A DNA stretch of 18,593 nucleotides. It comes from a virus (taxonomy: Duplodnaviria; Heunggongvirae; Uroviricota; Caudoviricetes). The notes under the pieces are model-generated. The model worked only from the letters and a program-made list of their open reading frames with translations, was not told where the DNA came from and did not search any database. Numbering within the stretch: the first letter of the stretch is position 1; every line of letters begins with the position of its first letter. Both the position numbers and the translations under genes were made by a program. Of this stretch, positions 11,549 through 18,593 are shown piece after piece. Where the stretch lies: positions 1-18,593 of the IMG/VR virus record IMGVR_UViG_2534681832_000034; one strand, written 5' to 3'.

Positions 11549-11953
11549 TTATTTGCTAAGAGCAGCGAATAATCGTTCGAAATCGATAGTATCTATAGCA
11601 CGCGTAAGCGCCGGAAGTTCAGCCTCAAAGTACCCGTGTCGATCGTAAAAGAAGGGACCGAAGAGCGAGGCATGTTGGATTCTACTTCGCCCCAGCCCGG
11701 ACACACAGTTAAGCCCATTACCGGCTAAAAGGCTAAAAAACTTCTCTGGATTATCGTGGTAAAGCTGAGAATCAATGGTGGCGGTTAACTCTTCCATAGG
11801 GAAGCACACCCGCCCTGTCTCCCAGGGATATTTAGTCCGAAGCATAAACATTGCTTTCAGCAATTCACATTGAGCGCGGATCGCGTCCGGTTCATAGCCA
11901 GATATGGAGACATAAGCCACGTCCCTCATTCCTGCGTCATCTTTGAAAGTCAC
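11549..11953 (-). CDS. C-terminal portion of the amber-split gene (annotated alone it is a 134-aa ORF with a poor start)
   Basis: No convincing SD at GTG 11953 or ATG 11929; in the same frame as the upstream ORF and separated from it by one TAG; terminator directly after its stop. Confidence 0.5.
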   Translation of the reverse strand: MTFKDDAGMRDVAYVSISGYEPDAIRAQCELLKAMFMLRTKYPWETGRVCFPMEELTATIDSQLYHDNPEKFFSLLAGNGLNCVSGLGRSRIQHASLFGPFFYDRHGYFEAELPALTRAIDTIDFERLFAALSK

Positions 11954-12650: not shown

Positions 12651-13535
12651 TTATGGATTGCGCTTATGGATCTGAAAGCCGATTTTCCTGCCGTTTTTTA
12701 TCTCTGAAAATTTAAGATATTCAATAGCTTCCAAATCTTTCATGGCTTTTCTGATAACGCTATTTTGCACGCTAACGGATGATTTGAGATTAAGCCTTGC
12801 TCTAAGGCGCTCAATGCTGACAGGTGCCGGGTTGGCGGGTAGAGCCTCAAAGAATGTATACAGTACCTTGGCCGTCTCTTTGCGCCCGAGCTTATCCAGC
12901 ATCTTCAGCTTCAGGATTCGCTTATAGTCAACATAGTAAAGTTCAGATAGCTGTTTCTGCGGCTGGATCTCGATAACATCAAGCTCGGTATTCAGGCTGC
13001 TATATGCCAACAAGTTGACGTTAATGTTATTGAGATGACCTTTTGCCGCCGGGAAGCGGAATTTGACAACTGTCTGCTGAATGCGTGTCAGAGAGTCATC
13101 AATACTTTTACGGAACGCCTTTGAAAGGCGCTTACGTGGATAGCCGCATCGATCGGCAAACTCGGAGAATGGCAGGGTGATTATGCCGTCATCATCAGGT
13201 GCGTAGTCAAACAACGCGGAGGTTATGCCCACCCACACCTTAAAATCAGTATCCATATCCAGGCGTGGACCATGAATTTCAATTCCCTCATAGCCTTCCT
13301 GCTCAACAATTTTGAGGCTTGATAGTTCTTCGGTTGCGTTCGTTGTGTTTGTAGTAACTGACGATCCGCGACGTAGTGCCACATTGGTAGATTTTAAGGT
13401 TGGCACAAACACACCTAAGCGCAACAAAGCAATGGGTTGTATAGTGCTATTGTTATTGGGTTTCAGGCTGTGGATTTCTCCTGTATTTCCTGCAACTTCT
13501 TCAACGCTAAGGAAGCCTTTATTTTCTTCCAGCAT
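12651..13535 (-). CDS. repA: Iteron-binding plasmid replication initiator RepA, 294 aa
   Basis: ATG at 13535 with GGAG SD (GGAGAAACCACG-ATG); the ORF track's 13592 start is a TTG lying inside the origin region. Flanked by iteron arrays on both sides. Confidence 0.85.
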   Translation of the reverse strand: MLEENKGFLSVEEVAGNTGEIHSLKPNNNSTIQPIALLRLGVFVPTLKSTNVALRRGSSVTTNTTNATEELSSLKIVEQEGYEGIEIHGPRLDMDTDFKVWVGITSALFDYAPDDDGIITLPFSEFADRCGYPRKRLSKAFRKSIDDSLTRIQQTVVKFRFPAAKGHLNNINVNLLAYSSLNTELDVIEIQPQKQLSELYYVDYKRILKLKMLDKLGRKETAKVLYTFFEALPANPAPVSIERLRARLNLKSSVSVQNSVIRKAMKDLEAIEYLKFSEIKNGRKIGFQIHKRNP

Positions 13536-13582
13536 CGTGGTTTCTCCATATGTGGCGCGGCCTGGCGTCATCTGGATTGCAG

Positions 13583-13826
13583 TTATCAACAACTGTGAAT
13601 AGTCAGGCTCTAAAATCGCGTACAGTCAATGTTTCTGTCGCATATAGTCAACAATAAATCGCGTGCAGTCAACAATAAATCGTGCACAGTCAACATAAAA
13701 TCGCGTATAGTCAATGTTGATCCCATTTCAGGCCAGAAATGGCGCGGCTTACAGCGATCCGGGATCTTCTTTGGATCTTCCTGGGTTCTCTTTAGGATCT
13801 GTTTATTGGATCTATGCTGTGGATAA
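13583..13826. promoter_or_regulatory. Plasmid replication origin: DnaA boxes + iterons + GATC cluster
   Basis: DnaA-box-like TTATCAACA (13583-13591); perfect DnaA box TGTGGATAA (13818-13826); six GATC sites between 13719 and 13812. Confidence 0.75.
13613..13714. repeat. Origin iterons (incC-like): five direct repeats at ~21-bp phasing
   Basis: AAATCGCGTACAGTCAA (13613-13629), CTGTCGCATATAGTCAA, AAATCGCGTGCAGTCAA, AAATCGTGCACAGTCAA, AAATCGCGTATAGTCAA (13698-13714), all in one orientation directly upstream of repA. Confidence 0.85.
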
Positions 13827-13834
13827 GTTGAATA

Positions 13835-13855
13835 AACCGGCCAACATAGCCGGTT
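13835..13855 (-). terminator. Hairpin after the 13869-14261 gene (weak terminator candidate)
   Basis: AACCGGC / GCCGGTT stem with 7-nt loop; the downstream minus-strand sequence is only moderately T-rich. Confidence 0.3.
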
Positions 13856-13868
13856 GGAAGGAAGGGTA

Positions 13869-14261
13869 TTATTCTACGCTTTCGATAAGAAGACCATGTT
13901 CATAACATTTAAGCTCATCGCCTTCGTACAGGAATTGGTATCCAATACCACCATTTTCATGGACATTAGGGAATAACTCATAACTCACTGAAGAGCAAAT
14001 CACACCAATGCAGCGATCAACGCCTTCTCGTTCTTCAGTGCTGAAAAAATCCTCTTCGGTAAGAACATGAGTACATTGCTCATCAGCATAGGTCGGAAAT
14101 ACATGCTCGATGCAATCCGGGTGTTTTAAACCAAGCTGATCGGCAAGCTCGAAAGCATGACGGTATTGTTCAGATCCTGGCTTGCCAACAGTGATGTGCT
14201 CAATTTTGTAGATTGAAGTCGCTTTGTTGATAGTTTGCTTTACTGTTACTTTATCAGACAT
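13869..14261 (-). CDS. Hypothetical protein, 130 aa
   Basis: ATG at 14261 with AAAGGGA SD; stop 13869-13871; 11 nt downstream of the lipoprotein gene. Confidence 0.75.
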   Translation of the reverse strand: MSDKVTVKQTINKATSIYKIEHITVGKPGSEQYRHAFELADQLGLKHPDCIEHVFPTYADEQCTHVLTEEDFFSTEEREGVDRCIGVICSSVSYELFPNVHENGGIGYQFLYEGDELKCYEHGLLIESVE

Positions 14262-14272
14262 AAAAATCCCTT

Positions 14273-14605
14273 TTAGTTACCGCTGATAGCGCGGTTGTAA
14301 TCATTAACGTTGCGATTCTTCCTGTTAATCCCCATCAGCATCGTTTCTGTATCGAGGATATACGCTGGCAGATCATCAAAATATTCACTGCTAAACTCTG
14401 GCATCCTGCACATAAACGCACTTTTGGGGGCAGGGTGGTTAACCTTTGTCGGCGTCGGCGTTAAATTCGCTGATCGACTCCCGGAGCAACCGCTGAGTGT
14501 CAGCAGGAATGCGCTGGCGAACATTACCCGCCGCAACCAGTTGTTTCTGAACTTCAGCTTTTCGTTCCATTTGCCTGTCAGCATATTTGGCTTGTTCTGA
14601 TTCAT
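14273..14605 (-). CDS. Lipoprotein (signal peptidase II lipobox LTLSG-C), start codon ambiguous
   Basis: Lipobox L-T-L-S-G-C with Ser at +2 and a Pro/Thr-rich mature region (TPTPTKVNHPAPK). ATG 14605 has AGGAAG SD; alternative starts at 14584 and 14524. The 5' 167 bp overlap the upstream gene in another frame. Confidence 0.7.
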   Translation of the reverse strand: MNQNKPNMLTGKWNEKLKFRNNWLRRVMFASAFLLTLSGCSGSRSANLTPTPTKVNHPAPKSAFMCRMPEFSSEYFDDLPAYILDTETMLMGINRKNRNVNDYNRAISGN

Positions 14606-14861
14606 TTTTCACTTCCTGGCTGTGAAAATGTTGCTCTGCTTTGTTCATCGTCTCAATGGTCTGGTTAAGATCCATTATTGACTTATCACGTTCCTTAACA
14701 GCCTGATCAAGACTGCCAATTTTCTCCATGGCTTGCTTTAGCTGATGACGTTCCCATGCAAACCCAGCACCAACAAGTGCGCAAATCAGAACAAGAACAC
14801 CAGTAGCAGCAAGTTTCTCCTTCAAAGACAAAGCTGTTTTTAACGTAGAAAAGAATGACAT
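14439..14861 (-). CDS. N-terminally membrane-anchored coiled-coil (periplasmic) protein, 140 aa
   Basis: ATG at 14861 with AGGAGG SD (the ORF track's 14888 start is TTG); one hydrophobic segment (LAATGVLVLICALVGAGFAW) then a charged helical region. Confidence 0.75.
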   Translation of the reverse strand: MSFFSTLKTALSLKEKLAATGVLVLICALVGAGFAWERHQLKQAMEKIGSLDQAVKERDKSIMDLNQTIETMNKAEQHFHSQEVKNESEQAKYADRQMERKAEVQKQLVAAGNVRQRIPADTQRLLRESISEFNADADKG

Positions 14862-15082
14862 GTCTTCCTCCTGAAGAAAAATTATCAATGAAGTCCTTTG
14901 TTACCGTGCCGCTTTGTTTAATTCATCAAGAACAGAATCAGGAACCAAAGCGGCGACTACGCTGGCTGTGCTGGCCTTATTTGCTGATGCTTCCGCAAGC
15001 GCGGTACCGATAGCATGGTTATAAGCAGTGAACCGCCCCGGAAATCCTGGAGACTAAACTCCCTGAGAAAGAGGTAAACAGG

Positions 15083-15409
15083 ATGACTAAAAATACTCGT
15101 TTTTCCCCCGAAGTCCGTCAGCGGGCGATTCGTATGGTTCTGGAAAGTCAGGATGAATATGACTCACAGTGGGCGGCAATTTGTTCCATTGCCCCAAAGA
15201 TTGGCTGTACGCCGGAGACTCTGCGTGTCTGGGTTCGCCAGCATGAGCGGGATACCGGGGGCGGTGATGGTGGGCTCACCAGCGCTGAACGTCAGCGTCT
15301 GAAAGAGCTGGAACGTGAAAATCGTGAACTGCGCCGCAGTAACGATATCCTTCGCCAGGCTTCCGCTTATTTTGCGAAGGCGGAGTTCGACCGCCTCTGG
15401 AAAAAATGA
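15083..15409 (+). CDS. IS3-family transposase OrfA (HTH, leucine-zipper)
   Basis: ATG 15083; [21 protein letters not shown]... typical IS3-family OrfA; ends in the A-run frameshift window. Confidence 0.9.
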
Positions 15410-16296
15410 TGCCACTGCTGGATAAGCTGCGTGAGCAGTACGGGGTCGGACCGGTATGCAGCGAACTGCATATTGCCCCGTCAACGTATTACCATTGTCA
15501 GCAACAGCGACATCATCCGGATAAACGCAGTGCCCGTGCGCAGCACGACGACTGGCTGAAGAGAGAGATACAGCGCGTATACGATGAAAATCATCAGGTG
15601 TACGGTGTGCGTAAAGTCTGGCGTCAGTTGTTACGGGAAGGAATCAGGGTGGCCAGATGTACAGTGGCACGTCTCATGGCGGTTATGGGACTTGCCGGTG
15701 TTCTCCGGGGTAAAAAGGTCCGTACGACCATCAGCCGGAAAGCCGTTGCCGCAGGCGACCGCGTAAACCGTCAGTTCGTGGCAGAACGACCTGACCAGCT
15801 GTGGGTGGCTGATTTTACTTACGTCAGCACATGGCAGGGCTTCGTCTATGTGGCGTTTATCATTGATGTGTTTGCCGGATACATCGTGGGGTGGCGGGTC
15901 TCATCGTCTATGGAAACGACATTCGTGCTGGATGCGCTGGAGCAGGCGTTGTGGGCCCGTCGTCCGTCTGGCACCATCCATCACAGCGATAAAGGCTCTC
16001 AGTATGTGTCACTGGCCTATACGGAGCGACTAAAAGAAGCCGGATTACTGGCATCAACAGGGAGTACAGGCGACTCGTATGACAACGCGATGGCTGAGAG
16101 CATCAATGGTCTTTACAAAGCGGAGGTAATACACCGTAAGAGCTGGAAAAACCGTGCAGAAGTGGAACTGGCCACACTAACGTGGGTGGACTGGTATAAC
16201 AATCGACGATTGCTGGGAAGGCTGGGCCATACTCCTCCGGCAGAAGCAGAAAAAGCTTATTATGCTTCCATCGGAAACGATGATCTGGCAGCCTGA
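15406..16296 (+). CDS. IS3-family transposase OrfB (DDE catalytic domain), expressed as OrfAB by -1 frameshift
   Basis: DDE-type motifs ([23 protein letters not shown]); -1 overlap with orfA at A-AAA-AAT-G (15400-15409). Confidence 0.9.
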
Positions 16297-17010
16297 GTTC
16301 ACAGATAAAACACTCTCCAGGAAACCCGGGGCGGTTCACAGTTATGGCTACGTTGGCGCTTTCATTCGCTCGTTCATACTGCTGTTGTAACGCAGTTGTG
16401 GGTGCTGTTGTCTGGTTGAAAACAACCCCAAACTGTTCAGTTGCTACTTTCAGAGATTCAATTTGCTCTTCTGTTAGTGCTGGTGGGGGAGTGGCAGTGC
16501 CGCCGCCTGAACCAGAGCCTGACGAGCTTTCTGAGCCAGTGTTAAGGGCCTGGTTAATCTCCCCCATTGCAGCGACTAAACTTGATGTATTAAGCGCGTT
16601 AACAGCGTCCTCAAGCGATTTAGTAATATTCACATCACCAATGGCAATAGAGATCGGCAGTTCTGAAACTTCTCGCTCATTAGCACGGCAGTAAACATCC
16701 CAACCAATATCGAGTTGAAGCAGCATTGACAGATCTGCATAACCAGCCAACAGGTCCGCGTGCTTAGTTGCCAGTTCTCCAATGTTCGTTAAGCCGGTTG
16801 TGGTTGTTCTGATCGTTGAAACATAGCTGGTAATAGTGTCGGGATAGACAATTGTATCCAGAATTAATCCGGTCAATTCTTCTGCAAGCAGTTTTGCTGT
16901 GTTAGCACTGTTTCGTGCCGATGTTATGGCACCAGGTGTTTTCATCCCACCGGCGGCGGCCAATTTTTTATATGCGGATAACTGGTAGTCTTTTTCCAGC
17001 ATGATATCTC

Positions 17011-17295
17011 CTAACTTACCTGAACCAGGCCGTCTCCGGACGCTACGGTAGATCCGCATGAAACAGGGTCACCAACGCATACGATCCCTTTACCATTGAC
17101 GGTAAACCATGCCCTGGTTGATATAGCTTGCCCACCGTGCGTACTGTTTCCATCGGTATGCTGTGCATATTGCTTACCATCAACTAACACTTCGACTCCG
17201 TTGACTTTAAGTAGTGGTTCACTCTCTACAGGAGGCCTGGATGGGAATCCTCCGTGCCCCGAACAAATGCTGTCTTTTGTTGCAATGCTTGCCAC
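17011..17295 (-). CDS. PAAR-like (spike-tip type) small protein, 94 aa, GTG start
   Basis: Motifs CSGHGG, STHGGQ and GDPVSCG in a ~95-aa Gly/Val-rich protein resemble PAAR-repeat proteins. No in-frame ATG, so GTG 17295 is the likely start. Stop TAG overlaps the SD of the downstream gene. Confidence 0.55.
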   Translation of the reverse strand: MASIATKDSICSGHGGFPSRPPVESEPLLKVNGVEVLVDGKQYAQHTDGNSTHGGQAISTRAWFTVNGKGIVCVGDPVSCGSTVASGDGLVQVS

Positions 17296-17376
17296 GCCAT
17301 CACCAATTATTTGCTCTGATTTTCGTTATTTTAACTTAGGTTATTTGTGGTCTGTATGGCGTTTACTTATCGCAAA

Positions 17377-17393
17377 ATTGCTCTAATAAATAT
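17377..17393 (+). promoter_or_regulatory. P1 C1-repressor operator-like site upstream of the 17465 operon
   Basis: ATTGCTCTAATAAATAT matches the remembered C1 operator consensus at 16 of 17 positions. Confidence 0.6.
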
Positions 17394-17464
17394 TGTTTTT
17401 TATGTCGTATTTTCGGTACCATTCAGCCATCGCCCTTCAATGGGCATTTGTTTGGAGTCGTCAG

Positions 17465-17749
17465 ATGCAGATGGAGCTAATAAGCCGCAAAGAGTTCGAT
17501 AGCCGTGTAACCAGCGGTGAACTCGACAACTTGCAGGCTATCAAGGTGAAAGAAGGCTTTTGCCTCATTGGGAATCAGAGCGGAATAAATCGCGTTTTTA
17601 TGCTTCGCCGTACGGATTTGAAGCCATTTGTCTGGAAGAACGAAATTGGTCCCAGCTCATACGCTCAAACGAGGGGGTGCCACAACCTGGCCTTTTTCTA
17701 CAAAGACGAGCTTTCTGTGGTTGATATTCAAGGGTTACAACATGTTTAA
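17465..17749 (+). CDS. Hypothetical protein, 94 aa, translationally coupled to the rdgC homologue
   Basis: ATG 17465 with GGAG at 7-nt spacing (the track's 17393 start is TTG within the operator); stop TAA 17747-17749 overlaps the next ATG (ATGTTTAA). Confidence 0.7.
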
Positions 17750-18152
17750 GCACTGGAAAAACATTACTATTTATAAACTTTCTCGTGAGGCGGATCTGAC
17801 CGACTTAGAAGATAAAAAGAAAATGATCCTTTTCACGCCATGCGGTAGTCAGGATATGGCCAAGTTCGGTTTTGTATCGCCATTTGGTGATAATTCTGAA
17901 GTTATCGCTATGCATGGAAATGGTTTTATCCTTGTTGAAGCAAAGCGCGAAACAAAAATTCTTCCCCCGCCGGTTATCCAGCGAGCTATTCAAGAAAAAA
18001 TTGAAAAACTTGAGCAAGAACAAGCGCGTAAACTGAAGAAAACAGAGAAGGACTCCCTGAAAGACGAAGTTCTGCATTCTCTTCTGCCACGGGCTTTTTC
18101 AAAGTTTTCTGTTATCCAGGCGATCTACGACGGTTCATCGATAGGAATTTAA
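17742..18152 (+). pseudogene. rdgC: RdgC-homologue (recombination-associated protein), truncated to 136 aa by mobile-element insertion
   Basis: [16 protein letters not shown]...[13 protein letters not shown]...[52 protein letters not shown] closely parallels the N-terminal ~130 aa of E. coli RdgC (~300 aa); similarity stops at about 18131-18136 and a stop follows 5 codons later. Confidence 0.7.
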
Positions 18153-18593
18153 ATCCCAAAAAGATTAAAAAACACCCAAAAACGGATGTTTATTCAACAC
18201 TGCCTGCGTGCCATGAGTGCACCGCCGTCAATTAAATGGATCTTATCGATTGATACTGCATATCACTGATGGTTTTTTACCCCATTCCCCTGAAAATGGA
18301 CGCAACTTCTCCGATGCGGCTCTCAGCCGCACACCCGCTGTTGCGCCAGTGGCTCATGCATCAGGACCAGCTCTGTCAGACGGTAGCCCCGCTTCAGCCC
18401 CGTAAAACGCATCTGACCTCCGCACAGGATGCACTTCAGCGGGTCAACCTTCAGTAACCGCTGATACATCCCTCTCCACCTGATTTGCATCGCCGTCTTT
18501 CTCACCGTCTCCGTTATGACGTACACAACATCTTCCAGTAACCGGCGCTTCACCGGACTCAGGAAACCGTAGTACCTCACCATACGGAACCCC
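18137..18593 (-). mobile_element. End of an IS91-family (rolling-circle, HUH Y2 transposase) element, partial; continues beyond window
   Basis: Junction lies immediately 3' of GTTC (18133-18136), the tetranucleotide IS91-family elements insert beside; no terminal inverted repeat; transposase 3' end reads toward the junction. Confidence 0.5.
18323..18593 (-). CDS. IS91-family transposase, C-terminal fragment (N-terminus outside window)
   Basis: ORF open to the window edge; ...VRYYGFLSPVKRR... and a CxxCGG motif resemble the IS91/ISCR transposase C-terminus as I remember it; TGA at 18323-18325. Confidence 0.5.
   Translation of the reverse strand, partial: GFRMVRYYGFLSPVKRRLLEDVVYVITETVRKTAMQIRWRGMYQRLLKVDPLKCILCGGQMRFTGLKRGYRLTELVLMHEPLAQQRVCG

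Follow-up and report, generated by a model that had tools for sequence, protein, structure and literature searches.

An IS629 insertion in upfB, the predicted tripod gene beside the PAAR-like gene upfC of a P1-like phage-plasmid

Introduction

The PAAR-repeat proteins of type VI secretion systems (T6SS) sharpen a trimeric β-helical spike, and in the structures of PAAR proteins and of gp5.4 from phage T4, a His/His/His/Cys cluster near the apex provides the metal ligands. Phage P1 has a spike-tip protein of this kind, UpfC, with a partner, UpfB, that is described as a tripod. This system is already known: its structure was described in 2025-2026. Here we analyze the upfC and upfB genes in an 18,593-nucleotide stretch of viral DNA (IMG/VR record IMGVR_UViG_2534681832_000034), which we will call the window. 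In the window, upfC is intact and upfB is interrupted by an insertion sequence (IS) of the IS3 family, IS629. We think it highly likely that the two genes are the P1-type spike tip and tripod and that IS629 has inactivated upfB here. The only new item is this strain-specific pseudogene allele, upfB::IS629.

A well-described relative of UpfC is gp5.4 of phage T4, which is similar in size (97 amino acids). Gonzales et al. (2022) used HHpred to assign UpfC to the gp5.4 spike tip (PMC9024508), and the GenBank entry for P1 had already noted that UpfC is 31% identical to T4 ORF 5.4. More recently, cryo-electron microscopy (cryo-EM) found a UpfC monomer seated on trimeric gp5, in an arrangement that is strikingly like T4 gp5/gp5.4, so that gp5.4 and UpfC have the same position on the gp5 trimer (PMC12810830). 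An independent study also places UpfC at the tip of the needle (bioRxiv 10.1101/2025.07.21.665459). The two spikes do differ: T4 gp5 contains a lysozyme domain that P1 gp5 lacks (PMC12810830; PMC9024508).

UpfB was described in PLoS Pathogens in 2026 as a novel helical “tripod” that is anchored to the spike-tip protein UpfC (PMC12810830). An AlphaFold3 model of a UpfB trimer was fitted to a three-legged density of medium resolution, and the fit was reported to be good (PMC12810830). A later paper from 2026 describes the tripod as three copies of UpfB on UpfC and calls its role unclear. According to this literature, UpfB would be physically attached to UpfC at the tip of the tail. Nothing like the UpfB tripod has been reported in T4; the 2026 paper only models gp5.1 as a possible binder of gp5.4.

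Both P1 genes are dispensable in the laboratory. In-frame deletions of upfB and upfC had no plaquing defect, and defects were found only in five named pmg knock-outs (PMC9024508). When upfB and upfC were knocked down by CRISPR interference, the phage still plated with efficiencies of 1.3 and 1.1. T4 gp5.4 is reported to be non-essential as well (PMC9024508).

Results

The region belongs to a P1-like phage-plasmid

With the IS removed, positions 14000-18137 of the window are 100% identical to phage vB_EcoM-Ro157c2YLVW, which is a Punavirus of Shiga-toxigenic Escherichia coli O157. The same positions are 96.7-98.4% identical, at the DNA level, to the records for phage P1. The entire window has matches of about 99% to P1-like plasmids from E. 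coli strains O111:H8 and O111:H-. In the reference record for P1, the 94-amino-acid gene is named upfC (gp066) and its partner is named upfB (gp065). Judging from these identities, we have here the upfC and upfB genes of a Punavirus, a P1-like phage-plasmid, whose background is Shiga-toxigenic E. coli.

UpfC is related to gp5.4 and to PAAR proteins

The upfC gene runs from a GTG start codon at 17295-17293 to a TAG stop codon at 17013-17011. Its product is identical to the solved P1 chain (PDB 9vyi_A, “UpfC”) at 93 of 94 residues; the window has S86 where P1 has A86. An earlier description of this DNA, which was made from the letters alone and which we will call the sequence-only reading, had proposed that the protein is PAAR-like and that it has repeated HGG and GD..C.G motifs. 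We did find HGG twice, as SGHGG (residues 12-16) and THGG (52-55). The second motif is present only once, as GDPVSCG (75-81), so its actual form is GDxxxCG.

Profile comparisons agree with the PAAR assignment. UpfC matches phrog_281 (“PAAR motif”) with E = 2e-30 across residues 1-93. Its match to PAAR_motif in Pfam (PF05488; E = 8.5e-6) has 26.4 bits, which is 0.6 short of the gathering cutoff of 27 bits, and its match to T6SS_PAAR_dom in NCBIfam (36.3 bits, E = 4.5e-9, residues 4-93) is far below the equivalog cutoff of 124 bits. When we compared UpfC to the PDB with phmmer, the hits included a gp5.4-like protein (9f4b_BA, 4.8e-10), T4 gp5.4 itself (5iv5, 8.6e-8; 4ku0, 1.2e-7), and the PAAR protein of Vibrio cholerae (4jiv, 3.7e-4). 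Although one curated cutoff was missed narrowly and the other one clearly, the homology of UpfC to PAAR proteins is clear.

The comparison with T4 gp5.4 extends to the putative metal site. About 85 residues align (E ~ 1e-7), and H14, H46, H53, and C80 of UpfC align with the H/H/H/C of gp5.4; both proteins also have an SCG(D/S)TVA motif. In the Vibrio PAAR protein 4jiv, H14, H46, and C80 are matched by identical residues. The cone domain of the T6SS PAAR-repeat proteins (such as V. cholerae VCA0105, 4jiv; PF05488) is homologous to UpfC, with E = 4e-4 and 8.5e-6, but UpfC differs from them in that it is found in a phage tail, has no N- or C-terminal effector extension, and has a structural helical protein as its partner. 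That UpfC folds as a conical β structure, as a monomer on a trimeric β-helical spike, is supported by its near identity to 9vyi_A and by the published cryo-EM (PMC12810830), so we expect the same fold in the window.

Upstream of upfC there is one weak sigma-70-like site (TTAAAA-17-AATAAT at 17334-17306, minus strand). It sits in the divergent intergenic region, where P1 has the C1 operator Op68 and the promoter Pdmt on the other strand. The P1 record does not annotate a promoter for upfC. A scan of 13800-17800 for promoters and terminators gave no more sites than were found in shuffled sequence.

UpfB is a helical protein whose gene is coupled to upfC

The two genes are joined tightly. The last base of the TAG of upfC is also the first G of the GGAG Shine-Dalgarno sequence of upfB, and the minus strand reads TAGGAGATATCATG at the junction. 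The ATG of upfB (17002-17000) is 8 nucleotides past the stop codon of upfC. This overlap, and the translational coupling that it implies, had been pointed out from the sequence, and the adjacency of the two genes in 34 of 35 related loci (see below) agrees with it.

To obtain the uninterrupted gene, we deleted 15029-16341, as had been suggested in the sequence-only reading. This restores an open reading frame (ORF) of 262 amino acids, with 14901 as the last base of its stop codon. From end to end (positions 1-262 of 263, E = 1e-136), the reconstructed UpfB matches phrog_1559, a family of unknown function, and it is 97% identical to a homolog, P0001, that we used in its place as the first row for the structure and representative searches. 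It has no match in Pfam, NCBIfam, or the PDB (by sequence); these searches also gave no toxin or enzymatic domain, and no immunity-like gene follows upfB. The linker GSESSSGSGSGGG occupies residues 156-168. In the AlphaFold2 model, UpfB is all-helical, with a predicted local distance difference test score (pLDDT) of 82.7 and a disordered linker (158-170) that is flanked by helices. The sequence-only reading had described a partner of about 262 amino acids with a helical N-terminal region, a linker, and a C-terminal domain, and this description holds.

The P1 record begins upfB 19 codons earlier, within upfC. We favor the start that gives 262 amino acids because the Shine-Dalgarno sequence, the start of the phrog_1559 profile, and the N termini of all of the homologs agree on it. 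In an alignment of 35 homologs of UpfB, methionine is present at this position in all 35, and leucine is next in at least 90%. The reconstructed protein carries the motifs of the family: the N-terminal ML, IGWD, and the linker. Since the structure of UpfC has been solved and UpfB matches phrog_1559 across its full length, upfC and upfB are real genes and not chance ORFs.

IS629 truncates upfB

The element in upfB is a complete IS629, with terminal inverted repeats TGAACCGCCCCGG... and a 3-base-pair duplication of CAG. Its orfA and orfB have an A-rich slippery overlap, and the orfB product matches transpos_IS3 (NCBIfam) with 316 bits. The copy is 100% identical to those in the Stx2 phages of E. 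coli O157:H7, and it is no different from the IS629/IS1203 elements of enterohemorrhagic E. coli, which have the same 1310 base pairs, the same orfA/orfB, and the same 3-base-pair duplication. Table 1 lists the features of the locus.

Table 1. Features of the upfC-upfB locus and its surroundings in the window.
Feature	Position	Strand	Basis
upfC, 94 amino acids, intact, GTG start	17011..17295	-	9vyi_A (93/94 identity); gp5.4; 4jiv; Pfam; phrog_281; P1 gp066
upfC stop / upfB ribosome-binding site / upfB start, TAGGAGATATCATG	17000..17013	-	Read from sequence
upfB 5' part: codons 1-221 and first base of codon 222; helical N-terminal domain, Gly/Ser linker, start of C-terminal domain	16339..17002	-	Reconstruction; phrog_1559; P1 gp065
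upfB 3' remnant: last 41 codons and stop, without start codon; conserved C-terminal segment	14901..15028	-	Reconstruction
IS629 (IS3 family), 1310 base pairs; orfA 15083-15409, orfB 15406-16296	15029..16338	+ (opposite to upfB)	Identity to IS629; NCBIfam; terminal repeats
Target-site duplication CAG	15026-15028 and 16339-16341		Read from sequence
78 codons from the IS, joined in frame with the cut upfB	16103..16338	-	299-amino-acid fusion ORF ending at 16103
ppfA and mlp, Rz/Rz1-type spanin pair, downstream, same orientation	14442-14864; 14273-14605 (overlapping)	-	phrog_89, phrog_30284; P1 annotation

The frames of the intact and the disrupted gene have exactly 221 residues in common, and the insertion lies in codon 222; in P1, the gene is not cut. 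(The sequence-only reading had an IS3-family element cutting the gene after codon ~220, which was close.) The product of upfB::IS629 would lose 41 C-terminal residues and gain 78 that are encoded by the IS, in a 299-amino-acid ORF. The upfB of the window is thus a pseudogene of the UpfB family: its frame is not intact.

The lost segment is conserved. Among P1-like sequences, Y223, A226, A230, L231, A234, S235, A247, P250, V253, and L257 are invariant. Across 35 diverse members of the family, conservation reaches 90% or more at A244 and P250, and residues 222-250 are among the best conserved positions. Because the 41 residues that were removed are among the best conserved, the allele is very probably null and the tripod protein non-functional, while UpfC is intact. 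But the phage-plasmid need not be dead from the insertion, since deleting upfB or upfC leaves the plaquing of P1 unaffected.

A search of 20,395 complete E. coli replicons and of PLSDB gave no contiguous match to this exact junction of upfB and IS629.

The upfC-upfB pair is conserved in P1-like phages

UpfB proteins form a small family, with 51 clusters at 90% identity and, among 1.84 billion proteins, 88 representatives at 50% identity. Full-length members nearly always have 245-265 amino acids, and the related loci that we fetched are mostly on contigs of ~80-95 kb.

In 34 of 35 loci, a homolog of PAAR/UpfC is directly upstream of the homolog of UpfB, and it ends 0-36 nucleotides from the start of UpfB. 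In the 30 loci from IMG/VR, the stop codon of the PAAR gene and the start codon of the UpfB gene overlap by 1 nucleotide. The coupling is kept down to ~31-45% identity of UpfB. In the exceptional locus (L009, 775-7591), a gp5-like gene and a PAAR gene are 3 kb upstream, and the UpfB homolog is directly before the capsid gene. The PAAR gene of L009 comes after the gp5-like spike gene and appears to be split in two frames.

In a Salmonella lineage, the gene order is PAAR, UpfB, a 149-amino-acid gene at the position of ppfA, and capsid gene 23, with no replicon in between. In more-distant P1-like phages (L005-L007, 3668-7388), the pair comes directly before the major capsid gene and is not separated from it by a plasmid replicon. 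The sequence-only reading had remarked that the pair is beside the plasmid replicon and away from the structural operon. Given the arrangement in these relatives, its position in P1 reflects a rep/par module that lies between the pair and gene 23. The PAAR-tripod pair is a conserved and translationally coupled unit, which is restricted to a small clade of P1-like phages of ~80-95 kb.

A tail-tip role for the pair

We propose the following model. UpfC would be a single-domain cone of the PAAR type with a conserved His3-Cys site (H14, H46, H53, and C80). It would cap the blunt end of the trimeric β-helical needle of gp5 and sharpen the tail spike, much as gp5.4 does in T4. UpfB, which is expected to be an all-helical protein of ~260 amino acids with two helical domains and a flexible Gly/Ser/Thr/Pro linker, would be translated right after UpfC from one mRNA, with the two coupled. 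It would then attach to the cone of UpfC to form the three-legged tripod at the extreme end of the tail, where it presumably assists with the first contact with the envelope or the passage through it. IS629 probably inserted recently in codon 222 and would have inactivated UpfB without necessarily disabling the phage. In this model, the identities of the genes, the anatomy of the insertion, and the conserved linkage are shown by our data, and the location of both proteins in the virion and their dispensability are taken from the literature. What we infer is that UpfB is no longer functional here, as well as any part that it plays in penetrating membranes. A tail-tip pair was one of two options in the sequence-only reading, and it agrees with the cryo-EM of the P1 baseplate, which has UpfC as the tip and UpfB as the tripod (PMC12810830).

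Several points weigh against this model. The tripod is an AlphaFold3 model that was fitted in medium-resolution density and not a built structure (PMC12810830). Its stoichiometry is not consistent between the reports, with a “three trimeric tripod” in one (PMC12810830) and “three copies” in the later paper. The sequence-only reading suggested a comparison with P1 virion proteomics; in a study of the P1 virion by liquid chromatography with tandem mass spectrometry (LC-MS/MS), neither the main text nor the tables mention UpfB. Given the fitted model and this absence, the assignment of UpfB to the tripod falls short of proof at the atomic level. However, the same study also missed UpfC, gp5, and gp26, all of which are now in the structure, so the absence of UpfB from it is weak evidence. 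Furthermore, neither gene has a known phenotype. As for the truncation, our case that it abolishes the function of UpfB is an argument from conservation, and the last ~30 residues of UpfB have pLDDT of just 44-63 in the AlphaFold2 monomer.

Alternative explanations

Could the insertion be neutral for UpfB? The C-terminal 41 residues might be dispensable, and the main effect of IS629 might be a polar one on the spanin genes ppfA and mlp. We consider this to be quite improbable, but it has some points in its favor. The genes ppfA and mlp share the orientation of the tail-tip pair, so they are possibly on the same transcript, and a polar effect of IS629 on them is possible: any read-through transcription from upfC would be interrupted. 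Also, IS629 lies between the two sigma-70 promoters for ppfA that the P1 record predicts inside upfB. Dispensability of the C terminus would fit with the low confidence of the AlphaFold2 monomer there and with a distant subfamily of UpfB that stops just past a conserved I/L-x-P motif. On the other hand, the promoters for ppfA are predictions, and our promoter scan gave nothing above chance. The strong conservation of residues 222-250, with A244 and P250 at 90% or above across the 35 members, argues for a function of the lost segment, and 78 foreign residues are attached to the truncated protein.

Another explanation is that UpfB is a chaperone or adaptor for assembly, which folds UpfC or loads it on gp5 and is not a stable part of the virion. 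In that case, the tripod density would belong to something else. This could explain why the LC-MS/MS study does not mention UpfB in its main text or its tables; it is also compatible with UpfB being only an AlphaFold3 model in a medium-resolution map (PMC12810830) and with the tight translational coupling, which is typical of chaperone-client pairs as well. Yet a good fit of the AlphaFold3 trimer to the three-legged density was reported (PMC12810830), and LC-MS/MS missed UpfC, gp5, and gp26 too. Since neither the upfB deletion nor the upfC deletion has a plaquing defect, the knock-outs do not discriminate. Overall, we view this explanation as very doubtful, and we prefer the tripod.

It is hardly credible that UpfB is an effector or a toxin that rides on the PAAR tip into a target cell, with IS629 having inactivated a weapon instead of a structural part. 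In favor of this idea, the order of a PAAR gene and then a tightly coupled partner is like that of T6SS PAAR-effector pairs, T6SS_PAAR_dom aligns to residues 4-93 of UpfC (E = 4.5e-9), and UpfB, which the published density locates at the very tip, would enter the envelope before any other part (PMC12810830). But the idea, which was the other option in the sequence-only reading, is unsupported because UpfB is an all-helical bundle of constant architecture with no toxin or enzymatic domain, no immunity-like gene after it, and a phage context.

Recurrent disruption of upfB

The search with the junction gave seven full-coverage matches, and these had IS3-family insertions at other positions in upfB. 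For instance, an IS3-family element is inserted near codon 167 of upfB in pLR-48_1 (L003, 3522-5623) and near codon 36 in pHI1B-o111 (L004, 3522-5470). In all, upfB of E. coli P1-like plasmids has at least three independent sites of IS3-family insertion, and among the matching replicons there are truncations of upfB at several further breakpoints. Both pLR-48_1 and pHI1B-o111 also have truncated rdgC genes that are followed by transposase fragments. In these plasmids, the upfB-hrdC neighborhood seems to be prone to repeated decay or insertion.

The upfC-upfB stretch is contiguous in 550 of 618 matching replicons (89%) and not in the other 11%. For a control, the capsid gene, the stretch is contiguous in 728 of 756 (96%), which leaves 4%. 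The neighboring upfA-ppfA stretch is contiguous in just 550 of 750 (73%). Because the whole neighborhood is variable, the lower contiguity of upfC-upfB cannot be attributed to upfB specifically. We considered whether upfB is a preferred target for IS elements, but this is not supportable, as upfA-ppfA is even less contiguous and the whole region is mosaic.

Repeated disruption of upfB could mean that only certain hosts or envelopes require UpfB, which strikes us as unlikely. If it were true, natural knock-outs of upfB such as the one in the window might differ in their host range or in their efficiency of infection. Beyond annotation, the locus has little significance: what the window contributes is a natural knock-out, upfB::IS629, in a P1-like plasmid of the Shiga-toxigenic E. 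coli type. Together with the linkage and the position of the pair, this knock-out could help in the search for a phenotype of the tripod.

Neighboring genes

The order of the genes in the window, upfC-upfB-ppfA/mlp-upfA-repA, is the same as in the P1 record, where upfC-upfB is followed by ppfA/mlp, upfA, and oriR-repA-parA-parB. On the opposite side of upfC, the P1 record has a divergent operon, uhr-hrdC-dmt, and uhr-hrdC is divergent in the window too. We found no T6SS structural genes in the 18,593-nucleotide window; instead, it contains parAB, repA, antirepressor genes, and, beyond parB, the P1 sheath gene 22 and capsid gene 23.

Directly downstream of upfB (14273-14888), mlp is out of frame relative to ppfA, and both match “Rz-like spanin” families in PHROGs.

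Between parA and repA, the window has an extra ORF (11549-11953 and 12651-13592), and related plasmids annotate a GIY-YIG nuclease family protein there. The P1 reference has only the incA iterons in this interval, without the extra ORF. A 134-amino-acid ORF in the parA-repA interval of the window has no match in Pfam.

Finally, hrdC, which is a homolog of rdgC, is truncated in the window (17742-18593), and only positions 3-129 of the 298 in the RdgC profile remain. Similarity to P1 stops at 18137, and the sequence past this point matches a plasmid region that is annotated as an IS91-family transposase. The truncation of hrdC is a second disruption by a mobile element, less than 3 kb from the insertion of IS629.

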